A DNA stretch of 64,000 nucleotides from Candidatus Omnitrophota bacterium (GCA_016931055.1 JAFGFL010000091.1:42108-106107); one strand, 5' to 3'. Positions 1-38,284 are shown, counted from the first letter of the stretch. Numbers and translations: made by a program. Notes: a model not told the origin generated them from the sequence alone.

Positions 1-420
1 ATGCGCAAATCCGTCAAATATACCCTGAAAACCATCAATTCGATCAGTCTTATTAAGGACCGGCTAAAAGAACTTTTGTTCTCATTGTATCGAAATGGGA
101 CCAGGAATTTTTATATCATTGGCAAACATGACTTGAGCATGCTGGTTGAAATGGTCATCAAAGACATTCATTGGAATGATTGTTCTTTCAAGATTCTTGA
201 TGAAACTCCCAGGGACAAAGTAGATGGAATATTGCTGATATGCAATGAACATGTGAATGAAGAGGCGCTGGTTATCCATAATTATGTGCATCTCATTCAT
301 GAACTTGCGAGGGACTCTCACGCGATCCAAGTTACAGGCTGCGGTCTTTCTTTTGAGAAAAATTATAAAGCGACATGTGAAAGTGATGAAGGAATTGAAC
401 CTGTAAAAAAGGCTGGTTAA
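1..420 (+). CDS. hypothetical protein; the window starts at its first codon, so its true start may lie upstream
   Basis: Open frame from nt 1 to the stop at 418-420; I recognise no motif. Confidence 0.3.
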   Translation: MRKSVKYTLKTINSISLIKDRLKELLFSLYRNGTRNFYIIGKHDLSMLVEMVIKDIHWNDCSFKILDETPRDKVDGILLICNEHVNEEALVIHNYVHLIHELARDSHAIQVTGCGLSFEKNYKATCESDEGIEPVKKAG

Positions 421-423
421 GTC

Positions 424-1188
424 ATGAAAAGTCTTAAAAAGAGAATTAATGGTGGTGAATTAACTATCGGATCATGGATCACGATCAGTTCACCCGAGAA
501 TGTTGAAGTGATGGGGCAGTTTGGATTTGACTGGCTTACGGTTGATATGGAACATTCTATGATTACGTTGCCGCAGGCGCAACAGTTGGTCCGAACCATC
601 AAGTCGATGAATATTCCGGCTTTAGTGCGGGTGGAGGAAAATAATGCGAATAATATAAAAAGGGTAATGGATCTAGGAGCGGATGGGATTATTGTTCCGA
701 TGGTGCTATCGAAAGAAGGCGCGCAGAGAGCTGTTGAAGCGGTGAAATATCCACCGCAAGGAATCAGAGGAGTCGGTTTGACCCGGGCGCAAGGATATGG
801 TTTCAAATTTGATTCTTACAAGGAATGGGTTAAGCGAGAAAGTATTGTCATTGCCATTATCGAACACTATAAGGCGGTGGACCATCTGGAAGAGATTTTG
901 TCTGTTGATGGCATAGACGCGACAATGATCGGTCCCTATGACCTTTCCGGATCAATGGGTTATCCGGGGGAATATAAGCGCAAGAATGTTGCTGATCAAA
1001 TTGCGCGTTATCTTAAGGTTAGTAAAGCGTTGAATAAACCAGCTGGTTTCCATGTTGTTCCTCCGGTAGCAAAACAGGTGGACGAAAAAATCAGAAGAGG
1101 ATTTAAATTTCTTGCCTTTGGAACAGACGCGCTCTTTTTAGGAACGAAGATCAAGGAACAATTGCGAATGGTCAAGAAATTGAAATGA
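424..1188 (+). CDS. HpcH/HpaI-family class II (pyruvate) aldolase
   Basis: About 250 aa; overall resemblance to the 2-keto-3-deoxy-acid aldolase family (the DxxH.. divalent-metal aldolase TIM-barrel pattern, LGADGIIVPMV, IGPYDLS); the start sits directly after the upstream stop. Confidence 0.7.
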   Translation: MKSLKKRINGGELTIGSWITISSPENVEVMGQFGFDWLTVDMEHSMITLPQAQQLVRTIKSMNIPALVRVEENNANNIKRVMDLGADGIIVPMVLSKEGAQRAVEAVKYPPQGIRGVGLTRAQGYGFKFDSYKEWVKRESIVIAIIEHYKAVDHLEEILSVDGIDATMIGPYDLSGSMGYPGEYKRKNVADQIARYLKVSKALNKPAGFHVVPPVAKQVDEKIRRGFKFLAFGTDALFLGTKIKEQLRMVKKLK

Positions 1189-1192
1189 TTTG

Positions 1193-2026
1193 ATGCGGAC
1201 GGAAACCAAAATAAAGATATTCAATAAATTGTCGGGCCTTTTAACGGATTCATTAACGTCAGCGGCAAGAGAACAGTCTTTGCTTAATTTGCGGAGAAAA
1301 CTAGAGGCTATCGTGCCCGATATCAAGGAACAATATACGGCTTTCAAGGTGGACAATGAGTATCTTCGGGCGAAGGTAAGGAATATGCATGCTTTTCAGA
1401 TATCGCTTGTCCAGCCGGTTGTCAGCCAATTTGAAAGCCCGACTATTGTCGATATCGGGGATTCTGCCGGGACACATATCCAGTATTTAAAGGGACTTTT
1501 TTCTGATAGTTGTTCATTAAAATGTTTAAGCGTGAATCTGGAAAAGGAAGCGGTTGAGAAAGTCAGGCAAAAAGGGATTGAAGCTATTCAGGCGAGAGCG
1601 GAAAATTTGGTCCAATATGATGTTCAAGCTGATATTTTTCTTTGTTTTGAAATGCTGGAGCATTTAATGGATCCTTGCCGGTTTCTGTATGAATTGTCGA
1701 TGAAAACGAAAGCGAGGTTTTTAATTCTAACGGTTCCGTATGTGAAAAAAAGCCGGATTGGCCTGTATCAAATCCGAAATAATAGAAATGAGGATTTTGG
1801 TGCGGAAACGACGCATATTTTTGAACTATCCCCTGAGGATTGGAAATTGCTTTTCCGATTCACGGGATGGCGGGTTGACCATGAAGTTGTTTACCGGCAG
1901 TATCCTCGAAAAAACTGGCTGCGCCTGACCAGTTACTATTGGCGAAAATATGATTTTGAAGGATTTTTTGGGGTGCGTTTAATTCCGGACCATTCGTGGT
2001 CCTCAAGATATCAGGATTGGTCATAG
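1193..2026 (+). CDS. class I SAM-dependent methyltransferase-like protein
   Basis: Motif I-like VDIGDSAGTH; motif II/III-like DIFLCFEMLEHL; the ATG at 1193 follows a TTG at 1190. Confidence 0.45.
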   Translation: MRTETKIKIFNKLSGLLTDSLTSAAREQSLLNLRRKLEAIVPDIKEQYTAFKVDNEYLRAKVRNMHAFQISLVQPVVSQFESPTIVDIGDSAGTHIQYLKGLFSDSCSLKCLSVNLEKEAVEKVRQKGIEAIQARAENLVQYDVQADIFLCFEMLEHLMDPCRFLYELSMKTKARFLILTVPYVKKSRIGLYQIRNNRNEDFGAETTHIFELSPEDWKLLFRFTGWRVDHEVVYRQYPRKNWLRLTSYYWRKYDFEGFFGVRLIPDHSWSSRYQDWS

Positions 2027-2027
2027 G

Positions 2028-2837
2028 ATGAAAAGAATGAAAATAACTGCCATTATCCCTGTCCGCATGCAAGCCACACGGTTTTCTGGTAAACCGCTAG
2101 CTTTAATTTTGGGATTACCTATGGTGGAACATGTTCGCCGCCGGGTTTCTTTATGCCGGGAATTAAGTAATGTTATTGTTGCCACTTGTGATCAAGAGAT
2201 CAAAGAGGTTGTTGAGAAAGCAGGAGGAAAGGTCATCATGACGGCTGACACCCATCAGCGTTGCACGGATCGCATTGCCGAAGCGGCAAGGAACATTGAT
2301 GCGGACATAATCATCAATGTTCAAGGCGATGAACCGCTTGTTATACCGGAAATGATGAACGCGGTTATAGAGCCGTTTTTGTCGGATTTAAAAGTGCCTT
2401 GTGTCAACATGATTGCTCCGATTCTGGAAAAAGAAGAATTTGAGGATCCTAATGCTCCGAAGGTTGTCCGGAATCTGAAAGGCGATATCCTTTATATTTC
2501 AAGAGAACCGATTCCTTCCAAAAAGAAAGCGGCTCATGAAAATTATCCAAAATGGAAGCAGTTGGGATTGATTGCGTTTCGCAGTGATTTTCTTCAGACA
2601 TTTGCACGGCTTAAACCGACGCTATTGGAAGAGGTGGAATCCGTTGATATGATGCGGGCCATTGAACATGGATTTAGAGTGCGCACGGTCGTGACAGAGG
2701 CGAAAATGATCGGGGTTGATGTTCCCGCTGATGTTGGAAAAGTCGAACAGGTTTTAAGAACAGACCCATTATTTGAGAGATATATGTCTCGGTCAGTTAA
2801 TGCTGGACAAACAAACGATGAACGGATGGTCATATGA
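2028..2837 (+). CDS. kdsB: 3-deoxy-manno-octulosonate cytidylyltransferase (CMP-Kdo synthetase)-like
   Basis: IIPVRMQATRFSGKPL, VIVATCD, GGKVIMT..HQRCTDRIAEA, NVQGDEPLV, PNAPKVV, ILYISREPIP, GVDVPADV; these are colinear with the E. coli KdsB motifs IIPARYASTRLPGKPL / NVQGDEPMIP / GVDTPEDL. Confidence 0.8.
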   Translation: MKRMKITAIIPVRMQATRFSGKPLALILGLPMVEHVRRRVSLCRELSNVIVATCDQEIKEVVEKAGGKVIMTADTHQRCTDRIAEAARNIDADIIINVQGDEPLVIPEMMNAVIEPFLSDLKVPCVNMIAPILEKEEFEDPNAPKVVRNLKGDILYISREPIPSKKKAAHENYPKWKQLGLIAFRSDFLQTFARLKPTLLEEVESVDMMRAIEHGFRVRTVVTEAKMIGVDVPADVGKVEQVLRTDPLFERYMSRSVNAGQTNDERMVI

Positions 2838-3889
2838 ATAGATTGAGAGTGGGCATCGCGGGTTTTGGGGTTGTCGGAAATCGCCGGAGGGAAGTGATTG
2901 ATCAAAATCCGTATTTCCAGACAGTGGCGGCGTGTGATCAAAAGTTTATTCAAAATATGCCTAAATCGAAGGACCTGAAGTTTTTCACAAACTACAAAGA
3001 TTTATTGAAGGTGCCTCTGGATGTTTTGTTTGTGTGTCTGCCGAATTATTTGGCGGCGGAGGTAACAATCGCCGGATTAGAACGAGGGGTGCATGTCTTT
3101 TGCGAAAAACCACCGGGTCGGATGGTCGAAGACATTGAGCGGGTCATCGAAGCGGAAAAGAAACATCCGCAGTTGAAATTAAAATATGGCTTTAACCATC
3201 GGTACCATGATTCCGTTCAGGAAGCCTTAAGGATTGTCCATTCCGGGGAGTTGGGTGAGATCATCAATATGCGGGGCGTTTACGGAAAAAGCAAGATTAT
3301 TCCTTTCTCCGGTGGGTGGCGGGCGGAGCGGCGGTATTCCGGCGGAGGGATCCTTCTGGATCAGGGCATCCACATGGTCGATCTGATGCGGTTGTTTTGC
3401 GGGGAATTTGAGGAGGTCAAAAGCTTTGTCTCAAACAGTTATTGGAACCATGATGTGGAGGATAACGCTTACGCAATCATGCGCGATCGCAAAGGGCGCA
3501 TCGCGATGCTCCATTCAACAGCGACTCAATGGCAGCACCAATTTTCGCTGGAAATCGCCCTGACGCAAGGGTCTCTTTGTTTGAAAGGAATCCTCTCCGG
3601 GTCTAAAAGTTATGGCCAGGAGCAGCTCATCAAGGCAAGGCGCAGCGAGGCGGATACCGGGATCGAAGGCGAAGAAGTGGTCAATTACTTAAATGATGAT
3701 TCCTGGCGCAGAGAAGTTAATGAATTTGCCGATGCGGTCATCAATAATGTTCCAGTCCCATCGGGGACAAGTAGGGACGCACTGTTAACGATGCAGTTAG
3801 TGTACAAGATTTATTTCGCCGATGAAGGATGGCGCGAACAATTCCAGATTCAAGATCCCGTTAGAATTCCGGCCGGACAGGATCGTTAA
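2834..3889 (+). CDS. Gfo/Idh/MocA-family NAD(P)-dependent sugar oxidoreductase
   Basis: N-terminal Rossmann segment LRVGIAGFGVVG; EKPP motif FCEKPPG; roughly 350 aa; 4-bp start/stop overlap. Confidence 0.75.
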   Translation: MNRLRVGIAGFGVVGNRRREVIDQNPYFQTVAACDQKFIQNMPKSKDLKFFTNYKDLLKVPLDVLFVCLPNYLAAEVTIAGLERGVHVFCEKPPGRMVEDIERVIEAEKKHPQLKLKYGFNHRYHDSVQEALRIVHSGELGEIINMRGVYGKSKIIPFSGGWRAERRYSGGGILLDQGIHMVDLMRLFCGEFEEVKSFVSNSYWNHDVEDNAYAIMRDRKGRIAMLHSTATQWQHQFSLEIALTQGSLCLKGILSGSKSYGQEQLIKARRSEADTGIEGEEVVNYLNDDSWRREVNEFADAVINNVPVPSGTSRDALLTMQLVYKIYFADEGWREQFQIQDPVRIPAGQDR

Positions 3890-3903
3890 AACGGAGGAAA
3901 GCG

Positions 3904-4524
3904 ATGAATATCCTAGAGGAGATTTTTGCACAAAGCAATATCCGGACAGATTACTTTAGAAGTTATTGCGACTATTTAAAAAGACTTATCTCTCAAATCG
4001 ACATGGAATCGGTCGAGAGGGTCGTAGAGTGCTTTTCAAAAGCCAGACAGGAGAACAAGACGATTTACTTTGCCGGCAACGGAGGGAGCGCCGCGACCGC
4101 TTCCCATTTTGCCCAGGACATGAACGAGATCGGTCGAAAAATTCGCGGGAAAGGGTTTAGGACGCAAAGTATTAACGACAGTGTGGCTGCGCTGACGGCG
4201 ATCAGCAACGATTACAGTTATGACAATGTGTTTGCCATGCAGATTCAGTACAACTTTGATGAAGGCGATGTTTTGGTTGTTATCTCGGCTAGCGGGAACA
4301 GCCCAAATGTGATCAATGCCGTCAAACTAGCGAAAGAAAAGGGTGGAACAACAATTGGGTTGGTTGGGTTTGATGGAGGACGACTGGCACAGATCTGTGA
4401 CCATGTTGTTCATATTAAAAGTAAAAAGGGCGAATATGGCCCGGTGGAAGATATCCATCTGGTTCTCGATCACCTGATTGTTTCCTACTTGACGATGGAA
4501 TTAGCTAAAGAGAACAATCCATGA
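3904..4524 (+). CDS. gmhA: SIS-domain sugar-phosphate isomerase, GmhA-like (sedoheptulose-7-phosphate isomerase)
   Basis: FAGNGGSAATASHFAQD, ISASGNSPNVINAVKLAKEKG and GFDGG are colinear with the E. coli GmhA motifs CGNGGS..HFAEE, STSGNSANVI and GKDGG; 206 aa with no CBS pair, so not KdsD. Confidence 0.7.
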   Translation: MNILEEIFAQSNIRTDYFRSYCDYLKRLISQIDMESVERVVECFSKARQENKTIYFAGNGGSAATASHFAQDMNEIGRKIRGKGFRTQSINDSVAALTAISNDYSYDNVFAMQIQYNFDEGDVLVVISASGNSPNVINAVKLAKEKGGTTIGLVGFDGGRLAQICDHVVHIKSKKGEYGPVEDIHLVLDHLIVSYLTMELAKENNP

Positions 4525-5435
4525 AGAGAAAAGTCCTTGTTTCAACATCGACATTTGCCGATTCTGACGATGCTCCGTTAAAGAAGCTTAAGAAGTCCGG
4601 ATTTGAGGTCATGCTGAATCCTTATAAACGCAAGCTTTCCAAAGAAGAGTTGATGCAATTATTGCCGGGAGTTAGCGGCCTAATAGCCGGTTTAGAGACC
4701 CTTGATCATGAAGTGATGTCCCGGTCGCAACTGAAAGTTATATCGCGTTGCGGTTCGGGGACGTCAAATGTGGATAAGGAAACAGCCGGTAAACTTGGGA
4801 TCCGGGTGTGTAACACGCCTGATGGCCCAACGGATGCTGTTGCTGAGCTGACGATCGCATGCCTTCTGAACTTGCTGCGCAAGGTGTCGATAATGGATCA
4901 GGCCCTTCACCAGGGACGGTGGGAAAAACAGACGGGACTTCAATTGGAAGGCAAAACGGTTGTAATCATCGGATTAGGCAGGATAGGACGCCGAGTGGCG
5001 CAATTGTTAATCCCGTTCGGAGCGAGGATCATCGGTGTTGACCCGTTTGTCAATAAAGCCGATGCTTCAATTAAGATTTTGTCACTTCAAGAGGCTTTAC
5101 CGTTGGCCGATATCATAACGTTTCATTGCAGCGGTGAAAAATGTTTATTATCTGATAACGAATTTGGTTTGGTGAAAAAGGGCGTGTTTTTGCTGAATGC
5201 GGCGAGAGGAACATTAGTTGACGAGAAGGCATTAATTGAGGCTTTAGACACAAGCCGCGTAGCAGGTGTTTGGTTGGATACATTCGGGCAAGAACCATAT
5301 TCGGGGAAATTGATCCGGTATTCTCAGGTGCTATTGACACCGCATGTCGGTTCATACACGAAAGAATGCCGCCAGCAGATGGAAATGCAGGCGGTTAATA
5401 ATTTAATTGAGGCTTTAGCCAAATATGAATATTGA
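4521..5435 (+). CDS. D-isomer-specific 2-hydroxyacid dehydrogenase family protein
   Basis: NAD-binding GKTVVIIGLGRIGRRVA; downstream catalytic-domain pattern (LLNAARG..VDE, TPHVGS); 4-bp overlap with the upstream gene. Confidence 0.75.
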   Translation: MKRKVLVSTSTFADSDDAPLKKLKKSGFEVMLNPYKRKLSKEELMQLLPGVSGLIAGLETLDHEVMSRSQLKVISRCGSGTSNVDKETAGKLGIRVCNTPDGPTDAVAELTIACLLNLLRKVSIMDQALHQGRWEKQTGLQLEGKTVVIIGLGRIGRRVAQLLIPFGARIIGVDPFVNKADASIKILSLQEALPLADIITFHCSGEKCLLSDNEFGLVKKGVFLLNAARGTLVDEKALIEALDTSRVAGVWLDTFGQEPYSGKLIRYSQVLLTPHVGSYTKECRQQMEMQAVNNLIEALAKYEY

Positions 5436-6174
5436 ATTCCAAAACAAGATTGTTCTTGTCACGGGATCGACAAGGGGTATCGGCAGACAGATTGCGGAAG
5501 ATTTTGGAAAGTCAGGCGCCCAATTGATCCTGACTGGAACGCAACAGCGCCAGATTGATCAACTTAACGCGAGGGCAAAGAAACTCAGATTGAAACGAAG
5601 ATATTATTGTGTTGATTTCTCTTCCCGGGAAAGTTTACGAACGTTTCTCAAAGAAATTGAACAATATAAGCGCATTGATGTTTGTGTCAATAATGCCGGT
5701 ATCAACCGGTTAAATGAGGTGGATAGGACGAAAGAAGAGGATTGGGATGACATGATCGAAGTGAATTTACGGGCACCGTTTATGTTGATCCGCCAAATTG
5801 GCAAACAAATGAAAAAGCAGCGTTATGGGCGCATCATTAATATTTCCTCTATTTTTGGCATCGTAAGTCGTGAGAAACGATCAATCTATACGACAACGAA
5901 ATCCGGTCTGCATGGATTGACGGTTGCCGCGGCGCTTGAATTGGCCAAGTATAATGTTCTGGTGAACACGGTTTCCCCCGGATTTACACGGACAGATTTG
6001 ACCAACAAGAACCTGAGTAAAGAAGACCAAAAAGAAATTGCACGACAAGTACCCATGCAAAGATTCGGAAACACTCAGGATATTTCAAAAGTTGTTCTCT
6101 TTTGCGCGAGCGTATTAAACACCTATATGACAGGGCAGAATATTATTGTGGATGGAGGGTTTATCTGTGCCTAA
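5425..6174 (+). CDS. classical short-chain dehydrogenase/reductase (SDR)
   Basis: VLVTGSTRGIGRQIA (TGxxxGIG), NNAG, YTTTKSG (YxxxK). Confidence 0.75.
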   Translation: MNIEFQNKIVLVTGSTRGIGRQIAEDFGKSGAQLILTGTQQRQIDQLNARAKKLRLKRRYYCVDFSSRESLRTFLKEIEQYKRIDVCVNNAGINRLNEVDRTKEEDWDDMIEVNLRAPFMLIRQIGKQMKKQRYGRIINISSIFGIVSREKRSIYTTTKSGLHGLTVAAALELAKYNVLVNTVSPGFTRTDLTNKNLSKEDQKEIARQVPMQRFGNTQDISKVVLFCASVLNTYMTGQNIIVDGGFICA

Positions 6175-7243
6175 TTCATTTAGTGTCCGTTCCCTATTCC
6201 GTGAATATTCTGTCGAGTTTATCGACAATTTGAAACAAAGAATCCGGTCTTTGGTGGACAAAGGTCATTTCTTCGTTATTGACGCCGGGGTTTACGATCT
6301 CTATCAGGATTGTTTTAAGACGGTTGTTTCAAAAGACGCTCTATTTATCGAAGAAGCGATAGAAAAAGCGAAGACATTTGAAAATAGTTATTCTCTGATC
6401 AAGCGTTTAATGGCGTCTGGTGTCCGAAAGAATACGACCTTGGTGGCTGTTGGCGGCGGCGTTATCCAGGACCTGACGGCGTTCGTCAGTTCTATCCTGT
6501 TCAGGGGGATCGAGTGGATGTTCTTTCCGACGACCCTCTTGGCCCAGGCGGACAGCTGTATCGGGAGCAAGACATCGATCAATATGGAGGGTTATAAAAA
6601 CATTTTGGGGAATTTTTATCCGCCATCAAAGATTTTCATTGACCTGAAATTCCTAGAATCTTTAAATGATGGGGATATCAAATCCGGTATTGGGGAGATG
6701 ATGCATTTTTATTTTGTGGCTGGAAGTCCATATGCGGAGAAAATCGCGACACATTATCAAGAGTTGTTTGCCGGCCGAGAATGGTTCGGTGAATATATTG
6801 ATGCCAGCTTGGCCATAAAGAAAGATGTTATCGAGCGGGATGAATTTGATAAAGGCGAACGTAACCTGTTTAATTATGGCCATACATTTGGTCACGCGAT
6901 TGAAACGATCACGGATTATAAAGTGCCGCATGGTCAGGCGGTGACGTTAGGGATGGATATCGCGAATTATATATCTCTTCAGAGGGGGATGATTGATCTG
7001 GAGATATTTGGCCGGATGCGCCAGATTTTGATGAACAATTTGCCGAAATTGGAAATTTCCGATGAGCAAATGGATCGATATATGGATGCTTTGTCAAAAG
7101 ACAAAAAAAATACGAACCAGGGCCTGACATGTATTTTAACGGAGGGCCCGGGGCGGATGAAGAGGGTCTGTATTCCGATGGATGAACCATTACGCAACAT
7201 GATCGGTTCGTGTGTTAACCATTACGCGGTAAATAGGTCTTAA
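6167..7243 (+). CDS. 3-dehydroquinate-synthase-family sugar-phosphate cyclase (DHQS-like; EEVS/DOIS-like)
   Basis: LVAVGGGVIQDLTAFVSS, FFPTTLLAQADSCIGSKTSIN and NYGHTFGHAIE match the conserved DHQS nucleotide and metal-site motifs. A GTG at 6167 with GGAGGG 8 nt upstream is the likely start; the track ORF begins at an ATG at 6146. Confidence 0.7.
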   Translation: MPNSFSVRSLFREYSVEFIDNLKQRIRSLVDKGHFFVIDAGVYDLYQDCFKTVVSKDALFIEEAIEKAKTFENSYSLIKRLMASGVRKNTTLVAVGGGVIQDLTAFVSSILFRGIEWMFFPTTLLAQADSCIGSKTSINMEGYKNILGNFYPPSKIFIDLKFLESLNDGDIKSGIGEMMHFYFVAGSPYAEKIATHYQELFAGREWFGEYIDASLAIKKDVIERDEFDKGERNLFNYGHTFGHAIETITDYKVPHGQAVTLGMDIANYISLQRGMIDLEIFGRMRQILMNNLPKLEISDEQMDRYMDALSKDKKNTNQGLTCILTEGPGRMKRVCIPMDEPLRNMIGSCVNHYAVNRS

Positions 7244-7244
7244 T

Positions 7245-9212
7245 ATGGCGACGGGATTCAAAAACGCAAAAACATTATGGGCTTGTTGGATGAAGCCTGC
7301 TGATCTGCCGGAAGAAGCGGTTGTTCTCAGTTTTCTTAAACCGAGCGTTGAAGAAGAAATGAGAAAACAAGGGAAAACGGCTGAATTGATTTTCGCGCGG
7401 CAGAAAGCGGCGGATGTTAAACAAAAGGCATTGGACATGTATGTTGAAATGGTCGCTCAGCTCGGGACGGTTTCTTTAAAAGATGGAAAAACATTGCGAA
7501 AGGCGTTAGAGGACGGGGAAGGAATCAGCTCGTGGTGGTTCCATCCGGTTTCAAGGAAGTATTGCGAAGGCGAGCCGACATTTAATCATATTATCCAGAT
7601 ATTGGCAATTAGTCAGGTGGCTGAGGATCATGGGTGTTCCCATATCATTGTTTACGGTGGGCCCTATGAAATTGCAGATGCATTGGGTAAACGATTTTTT
7701 GTATCGGCACAAAAATGCCGAAACCAAAATTCGTGGATGTTTGATTATATTTTGCCGCTCATGCGACGGTTTAAATTTCTTATCGTTTCGATCTATGAAC
7801 TTATTGTTCTTAAATCGTGTGTGACAAATTCAAAGCCAGCGCAAATGGATGTCCTTTTTTCTGGTTTCTGGGACTGGAGCGTCTGGGAAGATGGATCATC
7901 AAAAAAGTTGGTGGATAGGTATTTCCAGGCTGTTCCCGAGAAAGTGAAGAAAGCGGGCATGGAGGTGGGTTGGCTGGCGTGGGTTCAGCACACAACGGAT
8001 CCAAATAAAACACGTCGGTCGATTCAGCAAGCGATAAAACCGCTTCGCCGGCATCCGGAAATCATTATTGTCCAATGTTTCCTGACGATTGTCGATATTC
8101 TCAAGGCCGTTATTGATTTAAGGCCGTTCTTGATCTTTTGGCGTTACAGAAATGTTTCAGGATTAAAAGGCGTTCTTTGCCAGGAGGGGCTTGATTTCTC
8201 TCCGCTGTTTCGAGGGGCTTTGTTTGCTGGTTTTCTGGACTCAACCATTCCTCGCCATGCCTTGATCATGTTGGCTCATCAAAAAGCGGCTTCGCACCAT
8301 CGTCCCAAGAGTGTCCTGAGTTTCCTTGATTTCTTTTTGCATGCGCGGGCCGTTAATGCCGGAATAAAGAAAGGATGCCCCTCATGCGTCTTGGTTGATG
8401 TGCAGCATGCGAGTTATTCACGGGAGAAAACATTTGGGATTTTTCAGCCGAATATTGAAGTTCACGGAAACCCTGATGGATGCATGATCCCCCATCCTGA
8501 TTACATTTGCGCGATGGGTGAACTTGGAAGGGAAATTTTCATTGAAGGCGGGGCAGATCCGGAGCGAGTCTTGATGACGGGGTCTTCCCGTTATGATGGC
8601 GCGACACGAGTTGACGCGGGAGAGAAGCCAAAAACGGGTATTTCAGGGAAACGGATACTGATCGTAACGACTTTACAGAAAATGGGATCCGAATTCGAAA
8701 TGGTTGACACGGTTCATGAGGCCTTCAGGCAATTTCCGGATGTTTCATTGTCTTTACGTTCTCATCCTTTCTTCAGAATGCAAGATAGTCCTGAATTTCA
8801 GCCTTACAAAGACAGAATACAATGCACTTCCGGAACTTCCCTGGATGATGATTTGAACAAGGCGGATATCGTCTTATTCTCTTATTCAACTGTTGCGGAA
8901 GAAGCATTTATTCGAGGGATTCCCGTTTGGCAATGGATTACAGCGGGGTATAACGCGTCCGTGTTCCGGGATATCGGGATGGTGCCAACATTTTTTTCTG
9001 TTGAAAGTCTGGTTCGTGTATATCGTCGATTTCTGGAAAGTCCTGATAAGTATGTGCCTTCGGTTGAACAGAGAAAGCTGGTTAAGCGAAAATGTTTTTT
9101 TGATGACAATGGAAGCGGCAGACTTCCTTCAGATAATATTGCAGAACTGCTGGCAACCATTTGCGGGAAGAAACATGAATTATCCGAATCTAGAGAATAT
9201 GCGGGGATTTAA
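7245..9212 (+). CDS. large uncharacterised protein with a GT-B-like C-terminal region; candidate surface-carbohydrate glycosyltransferase
   Basis: 655 aa; C-terminal GKRILIVTTLQ...LRSHPFF...ADIVLFSYSTVAEEAFIRGIPV resembles the retaining GT-B / TagF-KpsC-like C-domain arrangement; I recognise no precise family. Confidence 0.3.
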   Translation: MATGFKNAKTLWACWMKPADLPEEAVVLSFLKPSVEEEMRKQGKTAELIFARQKAADVKQKALDMYVEMVAQLGTVSLKDGKTLRKALEDGEGISSWWFHPVSRKYCEGEPTFNHIIQILAISQVAEDHGCSHIIVYGGPYEIADALGKRFFVSAQKCRNQNSWMFDYILPLMRRFKFLIVSIYELIVLKSCVTNSKPAQMDVLFSGFWDWSVWEDGSSKKLVDRYFQAVPEKVKKAGMEVGWLAWVQHTTDPNKTRRSIQQAIKPLRRHPEIIIVQCFLTIVDILKAVIDLRPFLIFWRYRNVSGLKGVLCQEGLDFSPLFRGALFAGFLDSTIPRHALIMLAHQKAASHHRPKSVLSFLDFFLHARAVNAGIKKGCPSCVLVDVQHASYSREKTFGIFQPNIEVHGNPDGCMIPHPDYICAMGELGREIFIEGGADPERVLMTGSSRYDGATRVDAGEKPKTGISGKRILIVTTLQKMGSEFEMVDTVHEAFRQFPDVSLSLRSHPFFRMQDSPEFQPYKDRIQCTSGTSLDDDLNKADIVLFSYSTVAEEAFIRGIPVWQWITAGYNASVFRDIGMVPTFFSVESLVRVYRRFLESPDKYVPSVEQRKLVKRKCFFDDNGSGRLPSDNIAELLATICGKKHELSESREYAGI

Positions 9213-10215: not shown

Positions 10216-11748
10216 ATGAATTCGAAAATCGCGAAGAAAATACAAACACCCGGGGTCTTGACCAAAATAGTCGCGGACCTTAAGAAAAAAGGGAAAAAAA
10301 TCGTTCAATGCCACGGTGTATTTGACATTGTTCATCTGGGCCATATTCGCCATTTTAATTTGGCAAAGAAAGAAGGAGATGTTCTGTTGGTGACATTGAC
10401 AAGGGACAAAGATGTTAAACGGGGTCCCGGGCGCCCGATCTTTAATGAAAACATGAGGGCGGAAACATTGGCTTCATTGGACGTGACGGATTATGTGAGC
10501 ATTATTGACGCGCCGACGGCGACTGATTTTATCAGGAAAGTCAAGCCGGATGTGTATGTCAAGGGGATGGAGTATAAACAGAAAGAGAAAGATTTAACGG
10601 GCAAGATTTATGAAGAAGAAGAGGCTATTCAATCGGTCGGCGGGCGCATCGCATTCACGGACGATATCACGTTTAGTTCATCAAACATTATTAACAGCTA
10701 TCTGGATACTTTTCCGCCAAGAACCGTGAAATATCTTAAGGCCATTTCCAAAAGGTATTCCATTGACCATATTATCGATTCAGTCAATGCGCTGCAAAAA
10801 CTGAAGGTCATTGTGATCGGAGACGCGATCGTTGATGAATATCATTATTGTACGACAATGGGAAAATCTTCGAAGGCTGAAATAGTGGTCAATAAGTATG
10901 AATCGGAGGAAATGTTCGCGGGGGGCGCTTTAGCCACGGCTAATAATGTGGGGAGTGTTTGCGGAGGCGTTGATCTGGTCACGATTTTGGGGAACAATCC
11001 TTCTCATGAGGACTTTGTCCGTCGGAGACTTAATTCAAACGTTAAACCTGCTTTCTTTTACCGGCCGGGAACAGGAACAACGGTGAAACGTCGGTTTGTC
11101 AGCAGTGTGTTTAACAGGAAGTTGTTTGAAATTTGTTATATGAATGACAGTGATATTTCACGGGAAGAGGAAGCCGAGATTGTTCAGAAGCTGAAGGAAA
11201 TGATCCATAGATATGATCTGGTCGTGGTCTCGGATTTTGGGCACGGGTTATTAACCCGGCGTATCATTGATCTGATTTGCAAGAAAGCCAAATATCTGGC
11301 CATCAATGTTCAGACAAACAGCGCGAATGCCGGATTTAATTTGGTTACCAAATATCCCAGGGCCAATTGTGTTTGTATCGATGAGATGGAACTGCGTTTT
11401 GCCGCCCATGACAAATTCGGTGATGTCCGGACGCTTTCCAAAAAGATATATAACCAGATTGGTTGCGATCATATCATTGCGACGAGAGGGAACTATGGTT
11501 CGATCTGTTATTCAAAAGAACATGGCTATCATGAGACCCCCGCCTTTTCAAGCAACGTGGTGGATGCCATTGGCGCGGGTGACGCGTTTTTTGCCTATAT
11601 TGCGCCCTGTTTTGCCTCGGGCATGCCGCAGGATATGGTTTCGTTTGTCGGCAACGCGGTCGGTTCGTTGGCTGTGCAGATCGTCTGCAACCGGGAACCG
11701 GTGAATTTGGTGGACTTGACAAAGTTTATGACACGATTACTTAAATAA
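10216..11748 (+). CDS. hldE: bifunctional heptose 1-phosphate nucleotidyltransferase / heptose 7-phosphate kinase (HldE/RfaE-like, domain order reversed)
   Basis: N-terminal cytidylyltransferase-like domain CHGVFDIVHLGHIRH (HxGH) with RGPGRPIFNENMR; C-terminal PfkB kinase domain with VIVIGDAIVDEY and VVDAIGAGDAFFA. Confidence 0.75.
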   Translation: MNSKIAKKIQTPGVLTKIVADLKKKGKKIVQCHGVFDIVHLGHIRHFNLAKKEGDVLLVTLTRDKDVKRGPGRPIFNENMRAETLASLDVTDYVSIIDAPTATDFIRKVKPDVYVKGMEYKQKEKDLTGKIYEEEEAIQSVGGRIAFTDDITFSSSNIINSYLDTFPPRTVKYLKAISKRYSIDHIIDSVNALQKLKVIVIGDAIVDEYHYCTTMGKSSKAEIVVNKYESEEMFAGGALATANNVGSVCGGVDLVTILGNNPSHEDFVRRRLNSNVKPAFFYRPGTGTTVKRRFVSSVFNRKLFEICYMNDSDISREEEAEIVQKLKEMIHRYDLVVVSDFGHGLLTRRIIDLICKKAKYLAINVQTNSANAGFNLVTKYPRANCVCIDEMELRFAAHDKFGDVRTLSKKIYNQIGCDHIIATRGNYGSICYSKEHGYHETPAFSSNVVDAIGAGDAFFAYIAPCFASGMPQDMVSFVGNAVGSLAVQIVCNREPVNLVDLTKFMTRLLK

Positions 11749-15047: not shown

Positions 15048-15654
15048 TTTTGATAATACCATCGTGAATTATGACAAGGTGATGTATCAAACGGCTGTCC
15101 GGTTCGGTTGGGTTGATGATTCAGTGAGGAAAAACAAGAAAGATGTTCGTGACCGGATCAGATTGTTGCCGCAGGGTGAAATAAAGTGGCGAAAATTGCA
15201 GGCTACTGTTTACGGGCAGGCCATGAGGGGCGCGATCATGAACATAGGGGTGAAGGAGTTCTTTCGGTCTTGTCGGATGAAAAGGATACCGACGTATATT
15301 ATCAGCCATAAGACCAAGTACGCGGCCGAAGATGAACAGAAAATTGATCTCAGGAAGGTGGCGTTGGATTGGATGGAGGAACAGGGGTTCTTTGGCCAAA
15401 AAGAAATGGGGCTTGCCCGAGATCAAGTGTATTTTGAATCGACACGGCAAAAAAAGATCGAACGGATCCGGAAAATGGGATGCACTTGTTTTGTTGATGA
15501 TCTTCAGGAGACTTTTTTGGAACCGTCGTTTCCAGGAGGCGTGGAAAAAATATTATTTTCGAAAAATGCCGCCAGCTGTTTGCCGAAAGAAATAAAAATA
15601 ATCGGTAGTTGGAAGGAAATCAGTGACTATCTCTTTAACACAAACAACGCATAA
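15025..15654 (+). CDS. HAD-superfamily hydrolase (putative sugar-phosphate phosphatase, GmhB/KdsC-like role)
   Basis: VGVDFDNTIV (DxDxT motif I); FVDD near the C-terminus; AAAGGAG RBS 8 nt upstream of the ATG at 15025. Confidence 0.5.
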   Translation: MRHVVGVDFDNTIVNYDKVMYQTAVRFGWVDDSVRKNKKDVRDRIRLLPQGEIKWRKLQATVYGQAMRGAIMNIGVKEFFRSCRMKRIPTYIISHKTKYAAEDEQKIDLRKVALDWMEEQGFFGQKEMGLARDQVYFESTRQKKIERIRKMGCTCFVDDLQETFLEPSFPGGVEKILFSKNAASCLPKEIKIIGSWKEISDYLFNTNNA

Positions 15655-16705
15655 AACGCCTGAAGAGGTATGCGCGATCACGTCAAAGATCTTGTTGAAC
15701 CCGATTGTACGGGCTGAACAGCTGGGGGGCGGGGCCAATAGCAGGGTTTTTCGATTGATCTCACATGAAAAAGCGTCCTATATCGTGAAGTTTTACTTTT
15801 CCCAAGGACTTGATACGCGGGATCGCATGGGCGTTGAATTCTCCGGTTTGTCGTTCTTAAGGCAATACGGGATAACCTGTGTTCCGCGGCCGATCACTTT
15901 TTCTCGAGAAGAACAGTGCGCCATTTATGAATTTATGGAAGGGAAAAAGATCCGGTCGGGGGAGATCACGCAAAAGGATATGGATGAAGCGGTTGATTTC
16001 TTGAGAGACCTAAAAGAACTGGGAAAACTTGATCAGAGCCGTGATCTTTCATCCGCGTCCGAATCTTGTTTTTCCATCCGATCAGTGGTTGAAAATATCC
16101 AGTTGAGAATGGAGAGATTGCATCAAGTCAATGGAAAAACGGAAGAGGACCGGCAAATGCGGATTTTCCTGGCGGATGAGTTCAGGCCGTTTTTGGATAC
16201 TGTTCAGGGATGGTGCCGGGAAAATGCGGCGAAGGCCCATATCTCATTTGATGAAGAAATTGGCCTGGAAGAGAGGACTTTGAGCCCATCGGATTTCGGA
16301 TTTCATAATGCTCTGCGGACAAACGAAGGACGCATCACGTTTCTTGATTTTGAATATTTTGGATGGGACGACCCGGCGAAAATGATTTCTGACTTTTTAT
16401 TTCATCCGGCGATGGAGATGAGCGGTCTATTGAAAAAATATTTTGTCCGCCGGATGGAAGAGGCTTTCCATGACAATGCAAAATTAATGAAGAGGGTCGT
16501 GTTGGTTTATCCGTTGTTCGGCTTGAAGTGGTGCCTCATTTTCTTAAATGAGTTTATTCCGGATGAGTTGGTCAAGCGTCACCATGCGTCTCTTGACACG
16601 TTAGACAGGCAAAAACTGCAGAGAAAACAATTGGATAAAGCCAAAACAATGCTTCAGAAGATAAAAGAAACTTACAAAATATTTCCATACAGGGATTTTA
16701 AATAG
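15623..16705 (+). CDS. aminoglycoside-phosphotransferase / choline-kinase-fold kinase (putative anomeric sugar kinase)
   Basis: GGGANSRVFRL...YIVKFY (nucleotide-binding lysine region); FGFHNALRTNEGRITFLDFEYFGWDDPAKMISDF (catalytic HxDxxxxN / DFE motifs); GTG start with GGAAGGA RBS. Confidence 0.55.
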   Translation: MTISLTQTTHKTPEEVCAITSKILLNPIVRAEQLGGGANSRVFRLISHEKASYIVKFYFSQGLDTRDRMGVEFSGLSFLRQYGITCVPRPITFSREEQCAIYEFMEGKKIRSGEITQKDMDEAVDFLRDLKELGKLDQSRDLSSASESCFSIRSVVENIQLRMERLHQVNGKTEEDRQMRIFLADEFRPFLDTVQGWCRENAAKAHISFDEEIGLEERTLSPSDFGFHNALRTNEGRITFLDFEYFGWDDPAKMISDFLFHPAMEMSGLLKKYFVRRMEEAFHDNAKLMKRVVLVYPLFGLKWCLIFLNEFIPDELVKRHHASLDTLDRQKLQRKQLDKAKTMLQKIKETYKIFPYRDFK

Positions 16706-16707
16706 AT

Positions 16708-17520
16708 ATGAATAATTCAGTTTTGGATGAACGATCGCGTTTTTTAAGGAGAAGAATTGTTGATGTGCTCAAAGAGGCCAAGCGGGGGCATGTGGGGGCC
16801 GCGCTGTCTTTGGTCGAAATATTCCGGGTCCTTTACGATGATGTCTTGCGATATGATCCGAAGAATCCCCGATGGAAGGACCGGGACCGATGTATTTTGA
16901 GTAAGGGGCACGGGTGTCTCGCGCTTTACGCGATTTTGGCGGATAAGGGATTTTTTCCTAGAGAAGAATTGGCCAAATTTTGTCAACCGGACGGGATTCT
17001 CGGAGGGCATCCTGAGATCAAGGTGCCTGGGGTTGAGACATCGTCAGGAAGCTTGGGGCACGGGCTTTCCATCGGGTTGGGTATGGCGCTCAATGCCCGT
17101 TATGAAAAAGCCGATTACCGTGTTTTTGTCGTTATGGGCGACGGGGAATGCAATGAAGGCTCCGTTTGGGAAGCGGCTTTGTCGGCAGGAAAACATAAGC
17201 TGAGTAACCTGACGGCGATCATTGATTACAATAAAATGCAGTCGTACGCGACGACCGCGGAGGTGCAGAATCTTGAACCGTTTGCGGACAAATGGAGGGC
17301 ATTTAATTTTGCCGTCCGGGAAGTCGATGGCCATGATGTTTCGGTGTTGCGCCAGGCATTGAAGAACATTCCGATTGAAAACGGCAAACCGTCAGTCATT
17401 ATTTGCCATACCGTTAAGGGGAAAGGTTTTTCCGGTACGGAATGTAATTTGAAGTGGCACCACAAGAACAAGATCAGCGATGAAGAAATTGATCAGATGT
17501 ATGGGGAGTTGGCTCGATAA
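16708..17520 (+). CDS. transketolase, N-terminal (TPP-binding) subunit of a split transketolase
   Basis: SKGHGCLALYAIL, SSGSLGHGLSIGLGMA, VVMGDGECNEGSVWEA (GDG..xxN TPP motif). Confidence 0.85.
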   Translation: MNNSVLDERSRFLRRRIVDVLKEAKRGHVGAALSLVEIFRVLYDDVLRYDPKNPRWKDRDRCILSKGHGCLALYAILADKGFFPREELAKFCQPDGILGGHPEIKVPGVETSSGSLGHGLSIGLGMALNARYEKADYRVFVVMGDGECNEGSVWEAALSAGKHKLSNLTAIIDYNKMQSYATTAEVQNLEPFADKWRAFNFAVREVDGHDVSVLRQALKNIPIENGKPSVIICHTVKGKGFSGTECNLKWHHKNKISDEEIDQMYGELAR

Positions 17521-18473
17521 TGCGTAAGACTTGTCTAGAAATAGTTTATGAACTTGCCAAAAAGGATAAGCGTGTTTTCTTTATAGGTTCCGACCTTGGT
17601 GAAGGAACTTTGGATAAATATAAGAAAGAAATGCCGGACCGGTTTTTCATGGAAGGGATTAGCGAAGCCAATATTATCGGGATGGCGGCGGGACTGGCCA
17701 TGGAAGGGAAAATACCCTATATAAACACGATCGCGACATTTCTCACCCGGCGCTGTTTTGAGCAGGTGGTCGTTGATCTTGGACTCCATAATCTAAATGT
17801 CCGTCTCTTGGGAAATGGGGGAGGGCTTGTTTACGCGCCTTTAGGGCCGACGCATGAAGCGACGGATGATATCGCGATTATGCGAACAATCCCCCACATG
17901 ACCGTTGTGGCTCCAGCTGATGCTGATGAAATGCGGCGTGTCGTGAACCAAACGATTGATTATCAGGGACCGGTGTATATCCGTATTGCCAAAGGATTTG
18001 ATCCGATTGTAACAAGGGAAGAAGTTCCTTTTAAGATCGGCAAAGCTATTCTCATGAAGGAGGGCGCGGATGCGTTGGTGATAACGACAGGTATAACTTT
18101 GAAGATCGGATTAGATGCGGCAGCGCAATTGAAGAAAGAAGGATTACATATTTCAGTCCTTCATGTGCCGACAGTAAAACCGTTGGATGAGGAACAAATC
18201 CTGGCTAGTGCCAAAAAAGTCCCGGTGATTGTGACCATCGAGGAACATACCGTTATCGGGGGCCTGGGAAGCGCCGTGGCGGAAACAATAGCCGAAGCGG
18301 ATATGTTGTCGTTCAAACGTTTCCGCAGGATTGGGATTCCCGATGTTTTTCCAGACCAATATGGGTCGCAAGCGAGTTTGATGGAGTATTTTGGTATTAC
18401 GGCGGAAAAAACTGCTTTGTTAATCGGAGAGTTGGTTCAGATGAAGGGCAAGGGAGTTGAGATCGTCCAGTAA
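17520..18473 (+). CDS. transketolase, C-terminal (pyrimidine-binding) subunit
   Basis: FFMEGISEANIIGMAAGLAMEGKIPY; C-terminal transketolase_C region; start overlaps the upstream stop (ATAATG). Confidence 0.85.
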   Translation: MRKTCLEIVYELAKKDKRVFFIGSDLGEGTLDKYKKEMPDRFFMEGISEANIIGMAAGLAMEGKIPYINTIATFLTRRCFEQVVVDLGLHNLNVRLLGNGGGLVYAPLGPTHEATDDIAIMRTIPHMTVVAPADADEMRRVVNQTIDYQGPVYIRIAKGFDPIVTREEVPFKIGKAILMKEGADALVITTGITLKIGLDAAAQLKKEGLHISVLHVPTVKPLDEEQILASAKKVPVIVTIEEHTVIGGLGSAVAETIAEADMLSFKRFRRIGIPDVFPDQYGSQASLMEYFGITAEKTALLIGELVQMKGKGVEIVQ

Positions 18474-18481
18474 GTTCGGTC

Positions 18482-20604: not shown

Positions 20605-21316
20605 GTTCTCCAGCTTTGATTATTCAACAGTTCAAGGCGTACCGGAAATTGCCTTGCGTGTTGAGCTGTTGTCTCAGCGGCTCCAATTGCTTTCGAAAAA
20701 TGAACAACCGATGATATTGGAAATCGGCGTCGGAACGGGCGATGTGACGTTAATGTTGGCCAAACAATTTAAACATGTGACATGTGTCGACATGGAGGAG
20801 GATAATTGCCAGGCTGTTTCAGATAGGCTTAAACCGTCGGGGTTGAATCATGTCGAGTTTGTCTGTTCAACGATCGAAGCGGCATCATTACCGAAGAAGT
20901 CGTATCAACACATTATTATGCAGAATATTCTTGAACATCTGAAAGACCCTGTTGAAGTCTTAAAAGTTGTCAAAAACTATTTGAAACCGGATGGACGTAT
21001 CCACCTCTCTGTCCCCTTGGCGAATTCTTTGCATCGGTGGCTGGGAGTTGAATTGGGGATGATTCCTTCAACAGAAACGTTGGCGGAATCGGATATCCAA
21101 TACGGGCATTACCGTGTTTATGTTCCTCAATTGCTTCGGGACCATATACAGTCTGCCGGATACACGGTCGCTTTTGAGAAATTATTTTATTTAAAGCCGT
21201 TAACAACGGCTGTTTTAACGCCGTTATCTAGAGAAATTCATGAAGCGCTGTTCCGGTTGGGTGAGCGATTCCACGAATTTGCTTCATATATCTATCTGGA
21301 GGCGATGGGCCGGTGA
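20591..21316 (+). CDS. class I SAM-dependent methyltransferase
   Basis: ILEIGVGTGDVT (motif I), CVDMEE, IIMQNILEHL, LKPDGRI. Confidence 0.75.
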   Translation: MTNVKFSSFDYSTVQGVPEIALRVELLSQRLQLLSKNEQPMILEIGVGTGDVTLMLAKQFKHVTCVDMEEDNCQAVSDRLKPSGLNHVEFVCSTIEAASLPKKSYQHIIMQNILEHLKDPVEVLKVVKNYLKPDGRIHLSVPLANSLHRWLGVELGMIPSTETLAESDIQYGHYRVYVPQLLRDHIQSAGYTVAFEKLFYLKPLTTAVLTPLSREIHEALFRLGERFHEFASYIYLEAMGR

Positions 21317-27092: not shown

Positions 27093-27108
27093 ACACGTGG
27101 AGAGGTCA

Positions 27109-30296: not shown

Positions 30297-30350
30297 GTGT
30301 TATGACACGAACCTAAGTGGGTTTGGTCGTTTATGAGATAGGAGGAAGGG

Positions 30351-34950: not shown

Positions 34951-34959
34951 AAAGCGGTT

Positions 34960-37568: not shown

Positions 37569-37618
37569 AATGAGCGATGCTAACAAGAAAAACAGCCCTT
37601 AGGGGAGAATTGAATCAT

Positions 37619-38278: not shown

Positions 38279-38284
38279 CGACTG

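Follow-up and report, generated by a model that had tools for sequence, protein, structure and literature searches.

A stretch of 64,000 nucleotides from a Candidatus Omnitrophota bacterium (GCA_016931055.1 JAFGFL010000091.1:42108-106107; hereafter the window, with positions counted from its first nucleotide) was found to carry, at 424-9212, one copy of a conserved gene cassette, the grouping of which goes far beyond chance. The core set of this cassette consists of genes encoding a 3-dehydroquinate synthase (DHQS)-like protein and a short-chain dehydrogenase/reductase (SDR), a Gfo/Idh/MocA oxidoreductase (GFO), a SerA-like D-2-hydroxyacid dehydrogenase (2HADH) and a KdsB/NeuA-family cytidylyltransferase, and usually also a GmhA-like isomerase. 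It is very probable that this is a dedicated cassette for a ulosonic acid activated with cytidine monophosphate (CMP), i.e., a sugar resembling 3-deoxy-D-manno-octulosonic acid (Kdo) or sialic acid and intended for a surface glycan, and probably the cassette transfers this CMP-sugar too. As for the pathway, the explanation that we favor, with slightly less than even confidence, is that a seven-carbon (C7) acid sugar would be made from sedoheptulose 7-phosphate and CMP-activated independently of the Kdo synthesis of lipopolysaccharide (LPS).

The distribution of the cassette was established by an iterative profile search over 49 non-redundant loci with at least 8 kb on each side of the DHQS-like gene; a gene called absent from a locus is one not found within 8-10 kb. 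In all 49 loci, the SDR gene lies immediately upstream of the DHQS-like gene (family TIGR04425), usually overlapping it, and a GFO gene is also present in each of them. The 2HADH gene and a PF02348 cytidylyltransferase gene (the latter within 10 kb) were each found in 48 loci, the gene of the GmhA-like isomerase, a SIS-domain protein, in 42, an HpcH aldolase gene in 33, and the gene of a 655-aa protein of the GT-B fold in 13. The methyltransferase of the type encoded in the window recurs in one locus only (56% identity), namely that of Candidatus Scalindua (Planctomycetota, L001), where the gene order is identical: aldolase, methyltransferase, cytidylyltransferase, GFO, SIS, 2HADH, SDR, and DHQS-like, followed by the gene of a protein of about 660 aa without a Pfam domain. 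The order of the window is also kept, minus the methyltransferase and with the aldolase present, in a Patescibacterium (L003). Two compact loci (L056 and L057) are composed of six genes (SDR, DHQS-like, 2HADH, cytidylyltransferase, GFO, and SIS) and contain no enzyme forming carbon-carbon bonds. Moreover, for each cassette member, the HpcH aldolase among them, pairwise identities are correlated with those between the DHQS-like genes (r 0.45-0.63), and the genes of the cassette therefore travel and evolve together.

Confirmed relatives of the DHQS-like signature gene, recognized by family-specific motifs in one genome per GTDB species, number at least 583; in this genome-collection scan, a single DHQS-like protein used as the query gave no match, while an alignment used as the query succeeded. 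Their bacterial hosts include Leptospira, Mucilaginibacter, Pedobacter, Dyadobacter, Prevotellaceae, Omnitrophota, Planctomycetota, Desulfobacterota-type lineages, Chloroflexota, Actinomycetota, Legionellales, and Patescibacteria, and relatives of the cassette also occur in archaea (Thermoplasmatales and Nitrososphaeria). The cassette is horizontally mobile and phylogenetically widespread. Literature searches aimed at it returned no functional study, the nearest publication being a Leptospira preprint that lists gene annotations only. Two of its protein families, TIGR04425 and TIGR04326, are already known to curators, but are labelled hypothetical.

The part of the window at 424-7243 is made up of eight intact open reading frames (ORFs), which abut or overlap by 4-29 bases (end/start junctions 1188/1190, 2026/2028, 2837/2834, 4524/4521, 5435/5425, 6174/6146, and 7243/7245); because of this tight packing, co-transcription and translational coupling of the eight genes are very likely. 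Families were assigned with Pfam and NCBIfam profiles and their curated cut-offs, and all those named in the original prediction made from the window's sequence (aldolase, KdsB, SIS, 2HADH, SDR, GFO, methyltransferase, and DHQS-like) were recovered in this way (Table 1). The conserved unit runs past 7243, as the ORF at 7245-9212 belongs to it as well. At the other end, the operon begins upstream of the window, since the first ORF ends just ahead of the aldolase gene; no homolog of this first ORF was found in any related locus searched. [quoted passage not shown] PF00793 was likewise not found in the Pfam-annotated neighborhoods of the Scalindua and Patescibacterium copies. The window does contain two NeuB-family synthases and a NeuA-like cytidylyltransferase, which are discussed below.

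Table 1. Features of the cassette copy and of two further sugar-acid modules in the window.
Feature	Coordinates	Strand	Remarks
ORF without Pfam or NCBIfam match	1-420		139 aa; stops 3 bases ahead of the aldolase start
HpcH/HpaI-type class II (metal-dependent) pyruvate aldolase	424-1188	+	PF03328, E 3.7e-32, 111.8 bits (cut-off 25)
S-adenosyl methionine (SAM)-dependent methyltransferase	1190-2026	+	weak match: Methyltransf_11, 28.5 bits (cut-off 21.2)
KdsB-family cytidine triphosphate (CTP):ulosonate cytidylyltransferase	2028-2837	+	PF02348, E 3e-40
Gfo/Idh/MocA NAD(P)-dependent sugar oxidoreductase	2834-3889	+	PF01408, PF22725, PF02894
GmhA-like SIS phosphosugar isomerase	3904-4524	+	SIS_2 and SIS domains; 206 aa; no CBS domain
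D-2-hydroxyacid dehydrogenase, SerA/PHGDH type	4521-5435	+	PF02826, PF00389
Classical SDR	5425-6174	+	adh_short, E 5e-52
DHQS-like NAD+/metal enzyme	6146-7243	+	TIGR04425, 441.3 bits (cut-off 400), residues 14-356
GT-B-fold protein, TIGR04326 "surface carbohydrate biosynthesis" type	7245-9212	+	655 aa
HisF/HisH-like fusion	24407-25873	+	first nonulosonic-acid module (24407-35682)
NeuB	27097-28155	+	first nonulosonic-acid module
Nucleoside diphosphate (NDP)-sugar epimerase/dehydratase	28109-29122	+	first nonulosonic-acid module
NeuC-like 2-epimerase	28977-30296	+	first nonulosonic-acid module
MptE/Maf-like protein	30521-31552	+	first nonulosonic-acid module
Two B12-binding radical SAM enzymes	31362-33143, 33130-34950	+	first nonulosonic-acid module
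NeuA-like cytidylyltransferase	34960-35682	+	first nonulosonic-acid module
Second NeuB module	37577-50752	+	opens with PglD-like acetyltransferase and SDR
AMP-binding/LuxE/LuxC acyl-activation and reduction trio	39291-43005	+	second NeuB module
NeuB	43018-44037	+	second NeuB module
Third B12 radical SAM enzyme	44104-45741	+	second NeuB module
NeuC-like epimerase	45738-46901	+	second NeuB module
DegT	46905-48137	+	second NeuB module
CBS-epimerase fusion	49325-50752	+	second NeuB module

The cytidylyltransferase scores above the KdsB cut-offs of both NF009905 (303 vs. 255 bits) and TIGR00466 (165.2 vs. 155.2 bits), which upholds its earlier assignment to the KdsB type, and its closest solved structure is KpsU (1gq9, E 4.7e-45). 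It is in all likelihood a dedicated cassette member and not the KdsB that serves the LPS core, as a cytidylyltransferase is present in 48/49 loci, including those of Patescibacteria, Chloroflexota, Actinomycetota, and archaea (Thermoplasmatales and Nitrososphaeria). These groups are not known to have LPS, and because many carrier lineages are of this kind the cassette is unrelated to the Kdo of the LPS core.

For the 655-aa protein encoded directly downstream of the DHQS-like gene, structure prediction gave a confident model (predicted local distance difference test, pLDDT, 92.4) of the GT-B fold with no close structural relative; it is a candidate transferase for the CMP-sugar, and a more specific homology to Kdo- or sialyltransferases was rejected, as only the generic GT-B fold was recognized. 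Among the recurrent accessory genes of the related loci are those for a Methyltransf_23 methyltransferase (25 loci), a PF04199 "cyclase" (21), a hexapeptide acetyltransferase (19), a DegT aminotransferase (17), a DUF386/YhcH protein (16), and an MptE/Maf-like protein (14), and single loci contribute a GT29-like sialyltransferase, pairs of HisC-like aminotransferase and GNAT protein, and a BNR sialidase-like protein. The last of these, a BNR_2 protein, was observed in a Candidatus Magnetomicrobium locus (L073, 4692-5741) together with a class III aminotransferase and extra cytidylyltransferases. The GT29-like, MptE/Maf-like, DUF386, BNR, and GT-B neighbors fit a sialic-acid-like donor, while the accessory aminotransferases and acetyltransferases would, by analogy, match the diversification of 4-keto-6-deoxy-hexose intermediates. 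The methyltransferase of the window is an accessory tailoring gene.

A Candidatus Omnitrophica protein from a metagenome-assembled genome (MAG) matches the DHQS-like protein with 100% identity, and the GenBank call of 358 aa is consistent with a start near 6167. Although the DHQS-like protein exceeds the cut-off of TIGR04425, it falls below that of the aroB equivalog TIGR01357 (264.2 vs. 305 bits). It was aligned with annotated aroB products, three annotated sedoheptulose 7-phosphate (SH7P) cyclases and one DOIS (plasmid records), and five solved DHQS structures. The metal ligands of DHQS are retained, and at five diagnostic positions the protein has the residues of AroB (K225, R239, N243, H250, and K320/K321), where the three SH7P cyclases have M, K/S/E, D, P, and a residue other than Lys. 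These positions are, in the numbering of the Aspergillus nidulans AroB, K250, R264, N268, H275, and K356, and at the second and third of them the annotated DOIS has G and E, respectively. Out of the 14 positions in the substrate and metal fingerprint of the A. nidulans enzyme (R130, D146, K152, N162, E194, K197, K250, E260, R264, N268, H271, H275, H287, and K356), 12 match annotated and solved AroB sequences. The two exceptions are His187, which replaces the Lys of the E-x-x-K motif and occurs in 76 of the 79 family members compared, and Asp235, located four residues before a conserved Arg and present in all 79; AroB, SH7P cyclases, and DOIS have Lys and Glu, respectively, at these sites. By its profile scores and residues, the protein appears to be closest to AroB yet distinct from it, and, against the sequences compared, neither an SH7P cyclase nor a DOIS, and the two substitutions probably alter some step that is common to all cyclizing classes. 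The AroB-type residues, taken together with the known DHQS mechanism, indicate a DAHP-shaped substrate, i.e., a hept-2-ulosonate in the pyranose form whose C1 is a carboxylate and whose C7 bears a phosphate, and we consider a C7 7-phospho-ulosonate moderately likely. Furthermore, the SDR is an obligate partner of the DHQS-like gene, and this coupling extends to contigs classed as viral in IMG/VR, where 39 of the 40 contigs with enough flanking sequence have an SDR gene close to the DHQS-like gene, in most of them immediately upstream.

The remaining three core enzymes were analyzed in the same manner. The SIS protein is below the cut-off of gmhA (TIGR00441, 114.3 bits vs. 209.45), and its alignment to the Burkholderia pseudomallei GmhA showed that the phosphate loop S-x-S-G-x-S and both His residues are kept, with Glu replaced by Asp and Gln by Glu; these two replacements at metal/catalytic positions are conservative and do not vary within the cassette family. 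A comparison of 64 cassette homologs showed no variation at D72, E182, G131, and S133, while S128 and S130 are present in 63. Since the phosphate-binding loop is conserved, the isomerase is predicted to act on a phosphosugar before the phosphate is eliminated; action after phosphate removal was rejected on the same ground. The closest structures to the 2HADH are 3-phosphoglycerate dehydrogenases (E about 1e-50), its match to the corresponding family TIGR01327 (E 1.2e-61) is below the cut-off, and its catalytic triad (R229, E258, and H275) is invariant in 71 sequences, which points to an active, SerA-like enzyme. Its near-universal presence points to an oxidative origin of the C2 keto group, as condensation of the aldol type or with phosphoenolpyruvate (PEP) would supply this group ready-made. 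The nearest structures to the GFO protein are inositol 2-dehydrogenase, DgpA, glucose-fructose oxidoreductase, and aldose-aldose oxidoreductase, and C-glycoside 3-oxidases are among the enzymes with which it groups.

Two features of the cassette shape the proposed pathway: the six-gene versions lack an enzyme forming carbon-carbon bonds, and therefore the carbon skeleton should come ready-made from central metabolism, and the combination of a GmhA-like isomerase with a DHQS-like enzyme indicates a C7 sugar phosphate. In the pathway envisaged, which would let each core enzyme catalyze a reaction characteristic of its family, the isomerase would convert sedoheptulose 7-phosphate to an aldoheptose 7-phosphate, which the GFO enzyme would oxidize at C1 to a 7-phospho-heptonate and the 2HADH at C2 to a hept-2-ulosonate 7-phosphate, the 3-hydroxy analog of DAHP. 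The DHQS-like enzyme would then, by transient oxidation at C5, bring about β-elimination of the C7 phosphate, and the SDR would reduce the keto group to give a 7-deoxy-heptulosonic acid or, in loci with aminotransferases and acetyltransferases, amino or acetamido sugars would arise at this stage. Finally, the methyltransferase would tailor the sugar, the KdsB-like enzyme would convert it to the CMP-sugar, and the GT-B protein would install the sugar. By analogy, the DHQS-like/SDR pair may be regarded as the counterpart of the 4,6-dehydratase/4-reductase pair of 6-deoxyhexoses. Of the individual parts of this scheme, the oxidation route from sedoheptulose 7-phosphate is possible but carries somewhat more doubt than confidence, and a non-carbocyclic 7-deoxy product is to be viewed with similar reserve. 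More speculative is the wider proposal that these products form a new class of sugars, 7-deoxy-hept-2-ulosonic "mini sialic acids" with their amino, acetamido, and O-methyl derivatives, which would be made without carbon-carbon bond formation, with a non-cyclizing DHQS homolog as the eliminase, and displayed on the surfaces of bacteria and archaea and possibly viruses.

Several observations weigh against this scheme. The enol-pyranose product formed by DHQS after elimination cyclizes spontaneously, and formation of a carbocycle may be difficult to prevent. The nearest relatives of the GFO protein oxidize ring hydroxyls as often as C1. One group of IMG/VR loci ("type 1") contains SIS, SDR, DHQS-like, and cytidylyltransferase genes without GFO or 2HADH, and the isomerase is therefore not always tied to these two oxidoreductases. 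Genes coding for synthases and for the enzymes activating their products are often placed side by side, and in 27 of the 41 loci having both, the aldolase gene adjoins that of the cytidylyltransferase. In addition, HpcH-like genes recur beside divergent DHQS-like genes in IMG/VR contigs and are fused with them in contigs of giant-virus MAGs, which hints at a direct link from the aldolase to the DHQS-like enzyme. Lastly, glycan loci can far exceed 8-10 kb, so that the absence of the aldolase gene from a locus is a local one, and the Leptospira preprint lists an aldolase of the HpcH type at another place in the region adjoining rfb, which limits such absence further.

Much of this concerns the aldolase, around which the original prediction had built its route to a ulosonate from pyruvate and an aldose. 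The closest solved structure to this protein is YfaU, an aldolase of 2-keto-3-deoxy sugar acids (2vws, E 2.4e-39), and the affinity to citrate lyase β or malyl-CoA lyase that would have spoken against a sugar substrate was not seen. Its catalytic H44 and R69 and metal-binding E147 and D173 align with those of YfaU and are invariant in 40 cassette homologs, while the protein is below every equivalog cut-off of HpaI, GarL, and RhmA (173.7/368.8, 159.2/393, 155.3/406.75, and 144.3/441 bits). No NeuB, KdsA, or other aldolase was found among the annotated neighboring ORFs of the aldolase-less loci examined, and replacement of HpcH by one of them was rejected accordingly; the candidate ORFs there proved to be aminotransferases, GNAT or hexapeptide acetyltransferases, methyltransferases, glycosyltransferases, and one BNR protein. 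A cytidylyltransferase subtype tracking the presence of the aldolase was also sought and rejected, as no pattern was found. Thus, the placement of the aldolase in a sugar-acid branch with intact catalytic residues stands, whereas a route that depends on it is weakened by its presence in only 33/49 loci, with no substitute found in those of the other loci that were examined. The aldolase is a genuine, co-evolving, and frequent but dispensable member of the cassette and not demonstrably the step that defines the pathway; it could edit the stereochemistry at C3/C4 by retro-aldol and aldol reactions, exchange hydroxypyruvate for pyruvate, or feed in a parallel, DAHP-like acid.

The alternative that survives best makes this enzyme the first one. 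In it, HpcH would join pyruvate (or oxaloacetate, with decarboxylation) to a tetrose 4-phosphate such as erythrose 4-phosphate, yielding DAHP or a stereoisomer, from which the DHQS-like enzyme and the SDR would produce a 3,7-dideoxy-heptulosonic acid for activation by the KdsB-like enzyme; where the aldolase is absent, DAHP would be taken from the shikimate pathway, and GFO, 2HADH, and SIS would be tailoring or supply enzymes. Besides the intact active site, the kinship with 2-keto-3-deoxy sugar-acid aldolases, the position beside the cytidylyltransferase gene, and the adjoining or fused HpcH-like genes of the IMG/VR contigs, this is favored by the co-evolution of the aldolase with the cassette (r 0.58), by the AroB-like character of the DHQS-like protein at positions where SH7P cyclases and DOIS differ, and by the presence of the aldolase in the patescibacterial copy. 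Patescibacteria usually lack the shikimate pathway. On the other hand, GFO, 2HADH, and SIS would be left without a necessary job, the 2HADH being redundant once a 2-keto acid is supplied ready-made, 16/49 loci have neither the aldolase nor, in those examined, a replacement, and no column of the DHQS-like alignment tracks the aldolase (365 columns, best uncorrected p 0.015), so co-variation of the DHQS-like active site with its presence was rejected. We consider an aldolase-initiated pathway a serious alternative, although a rather unlikely one.

A carbocyclic product is improbable. The DHQS-like enzyme would in this case perform the full DHQS reaction to a dehydroquinate-like ring, and the SDR would reduce it to a quinate-like "carba-ulosonic acid", cytidylylated on its tertiary hydroxyl. 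NCBIfam names TIGR04425, a hypothetical equivalog whose cut-off the protein exceeds, [quoted passage not shown]; the protein keeps the DHQS metal ligands and, His187 and Asp235 apart, the residues of the substrate-binding motifs, and in all 49 loci its gene is paired with that of a ketoreductase. As already mentioned, the DHQS intermediate cyclizes readily after elimination. However, the CMP ester of a carbocyclic tertiary alcohol cannot, on chemical reasoning, form an oxocarbenium ion and would be a poor glycosyl donor, while the cassette is accompanied by cytidylyltransferases of the KdsB/NeuA type, GT29-like and Maf-like transferases, DUF386, and the GT-B protein; moreover, His187 and Asp235 sit at positions conserved in every cyclizing class compared.

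A ten-carbon (C10) or Kdo-like eight-carbon (C8) acid is very improbable. Here, the isomerase would deliver heptose 7-phosphate or arabinose 5-phosphate, to which the aldolase would add pyruvate, and the resulting deculosonate or octulosonate phosphate would be trimmed and activated; the window does combine a pyruvate aldolase with a GmhA-like isomerase and a KdsB-like enzyme and has no KdsA, but the aldolase is not universal, and elimination of the DHQS type needs a phosphate on the carbon borne by the ring carbon that adjoins the oxidized hydroxyl. In a pyranose 2-ulosonate this carbon is C7, and a C8 or C10 phosphate would be out of reach. The heptose-derived 10-carbon acid suggested in the original prediction has thus become unlikely, as the DHQS geometry and the retained AroB-type residues imply a C7 phosphate. 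Finally, it is scarcely credible that the cytidylyltransferase is a housekeeping KdsB for the Kdo of the LPS core among unrelated glycan and metabolic genes, since, for all its score above the kdsB equivalog cut-off, it accompanies the DHQS-like/SDR pair in nearly every locus, including phyla not known to have LPS, in an order conserved between phyla and with genes that overlap one another.

If the proposed pathway from sedoheptulose 7-phosphate is true, it would represent a third logic for CMP-activated acidic surface sugars, as the KdsA and NeuB routes are both PEP-dependent, and PEP-dependent synthesis would be replaced here by oxidation of a heptose phosphate followed by DHQS-type elimination of the phosphate. 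It would also provide functions for TIGR04425 and its partner TIGR04326 and explain the "KdsB" annotations in organisms without LPS. The sugars would be displayed by hundreds of species, among them Patescibacteria, pathogenic Leptospira, and Bacteroidota of the gut. For the O-antigen region of Leptospira and the capsule loci of Bacteroidota, a new sugar would then be predicted, which would be relevant to serotyping and vaccines.

The cassette copy is part of a larger whole. Long ORFs lie exclusively on the plus strand over the 64 kb, each 2-kb bin shows positive GC skew (0.12-0.23), and the window is one very large co-oriented glycan biosynthesis locus. Two modules centered on NeuB genes follow the cassette (Table 1); in the first, sialic-acid-like one, the genes of B12 radical SAM enzymes suggest C-methylation or other unusual tailoring, and in the second, the Lux-type genes may point to a sugar substituent that is N-acyl or derived from an aldehyde. 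Between the cassette and these modules, a 510-aa HldE-like bifunctional protein is encoded at 10216-11748, in which the domain order is inverted (a cytidylyltransferase-like N-terminal and a PfkB kinase C-terminal domain) and of which tblastn found no homolog in the related loci. The GmhA-like protein of the cassette is the only SIS protein in the window and might also feed a nucleotide-heptose branch. The region 15623-21316 encodes an APH-like kinase, a split transketolase (N-terminal part 16708-17520 and C-terminal part 17520-18473), an NDP-sugar epimerase, a Zn-dependent alcohol dehydrogenase, and a methyltransferase. In an IMG/VR contig (L084, 3-1053), a split transketolase is likewise encoded, a few kb upstream of the DHQS-like cassette, and this co-occurrence could be relevant to the supply of heptulose phosphate.

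In total, 62 IMG/VR contigs classed as viral (L084-L145) each contain the SDR and DHQS-like pair. The type 1 contigs (e.g., L084) have the gene order GT29-like, cytidylyltransferase-cupin fusion, SDR, DHQS-like, class III aminotransferase, SIS, and two MptE-like genes, and contain no GFO, 2HADH, or HpcH gene, while those of type 2 (e.g., L108) have a divergent HpcH gene in convergent orientation just downstream. Within the phage records of INPHARED, no member of the DHQS-like family was found, the only matches being canonical aroB of about 30% identity, and some of the IMG/VR contigs may therefore be host fragments. In the giant-virus MAG contigs (L136, 4057-5895, and also L139 and L141), a 612-aa fusion combines a distant HpcH-like TIM-barrel with a DHQS-like domain. 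The former has Lys at the position of the catalytic Arg, whereas the latter (40% identity to the protein of the window) keeps the DSCIGSK motif and the equivalent of Asp235, with Lys, not His, at the E-x-x-K site. The fusion gene adjoins those of a three-domain thiamine pyrophosphate-dependent enzyme and an SDR.

Comparison with known systems places the cassette close to the CMP-Kdo pathway, with which it shares a last enzyme of the KdsB family, a SIS-fold isomerase at the proposed start, and a phospho-ulosonate that would lose its phosphate before activation. It differs from that pathway in lacking KdsA and KdsC, in having a GmhA-like isomerase without the CBS domain, and in its occurrence in lineages without LPS; moreover, the phosphate is probably lost by DHQS-type elimination, which leaves a deoxy carbon, and not by hydrolysis, and the acid is probably C7 and not C8. 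The nonulosonic acid pathways (NeuB/NeuA; legionaminic and pseudaminic acids) likewise supply surface glycans with a CMP-activated 2-ulosonic acid, the predicted product here. The same types of associated genes (GT29-like and Maf-like transferases, aminotransferases, and N-acetyltransferases) are found with both, and both would include a dehydratase-like step followed by reduction or amination. Unlike in those pathways, no PEP-dependent synthase of the NeuB type was found in 424-9212 or in the annotated neighboring ORFs of the related loci, the two NeuB genes of the window belonging to separate modules, and deoxygenation is proposed to take place on a free phospho-acid through the DHQS-like enzyme and not on an NDP-hexose through an SDR 4,6-dehydratase.

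The DHQS-like protein resembles AroB and the superfamily of sugar phosphate cyclases (EEVS, DDGS, and DOIS) in fold, Pfam domains, AroB-type residues on the phosphate and carboxylate side, and metal ligands, but it constitutes a family of its own, with His for Lys and Asp for Glu, and is encoded in glycan loci together with a cytidylyltransferase, never with aro genes or genes for cyclitol natural products. The two sugar-phosphate oxidations proposed for GFO and 2HADH would be the same as those of Epd and PdxB in pyridoxal phosphate synthesis, PdxB being of the same family as the 2HADH, although the substrate would be a heptose 7-phosphate in place of erythrose 4-phosphate, and the first enzyme is of the Gfo/Idh/MocA and not the GAPDH-like type. 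The aldolase, in turn, shares family and catalytic residues with HpaI, GarL, and YfaU (RhmA), the last being its nearest solved structure, but it is far below their equivalog cut-offs, and its gene belongs to a locus for glycan biosynthesis, not to an operon for catabolism. Taken together, the cassette would work like the CMP-Kdo and nonulosonic acid pathways, yet by its gene content it appears to stand outside both.

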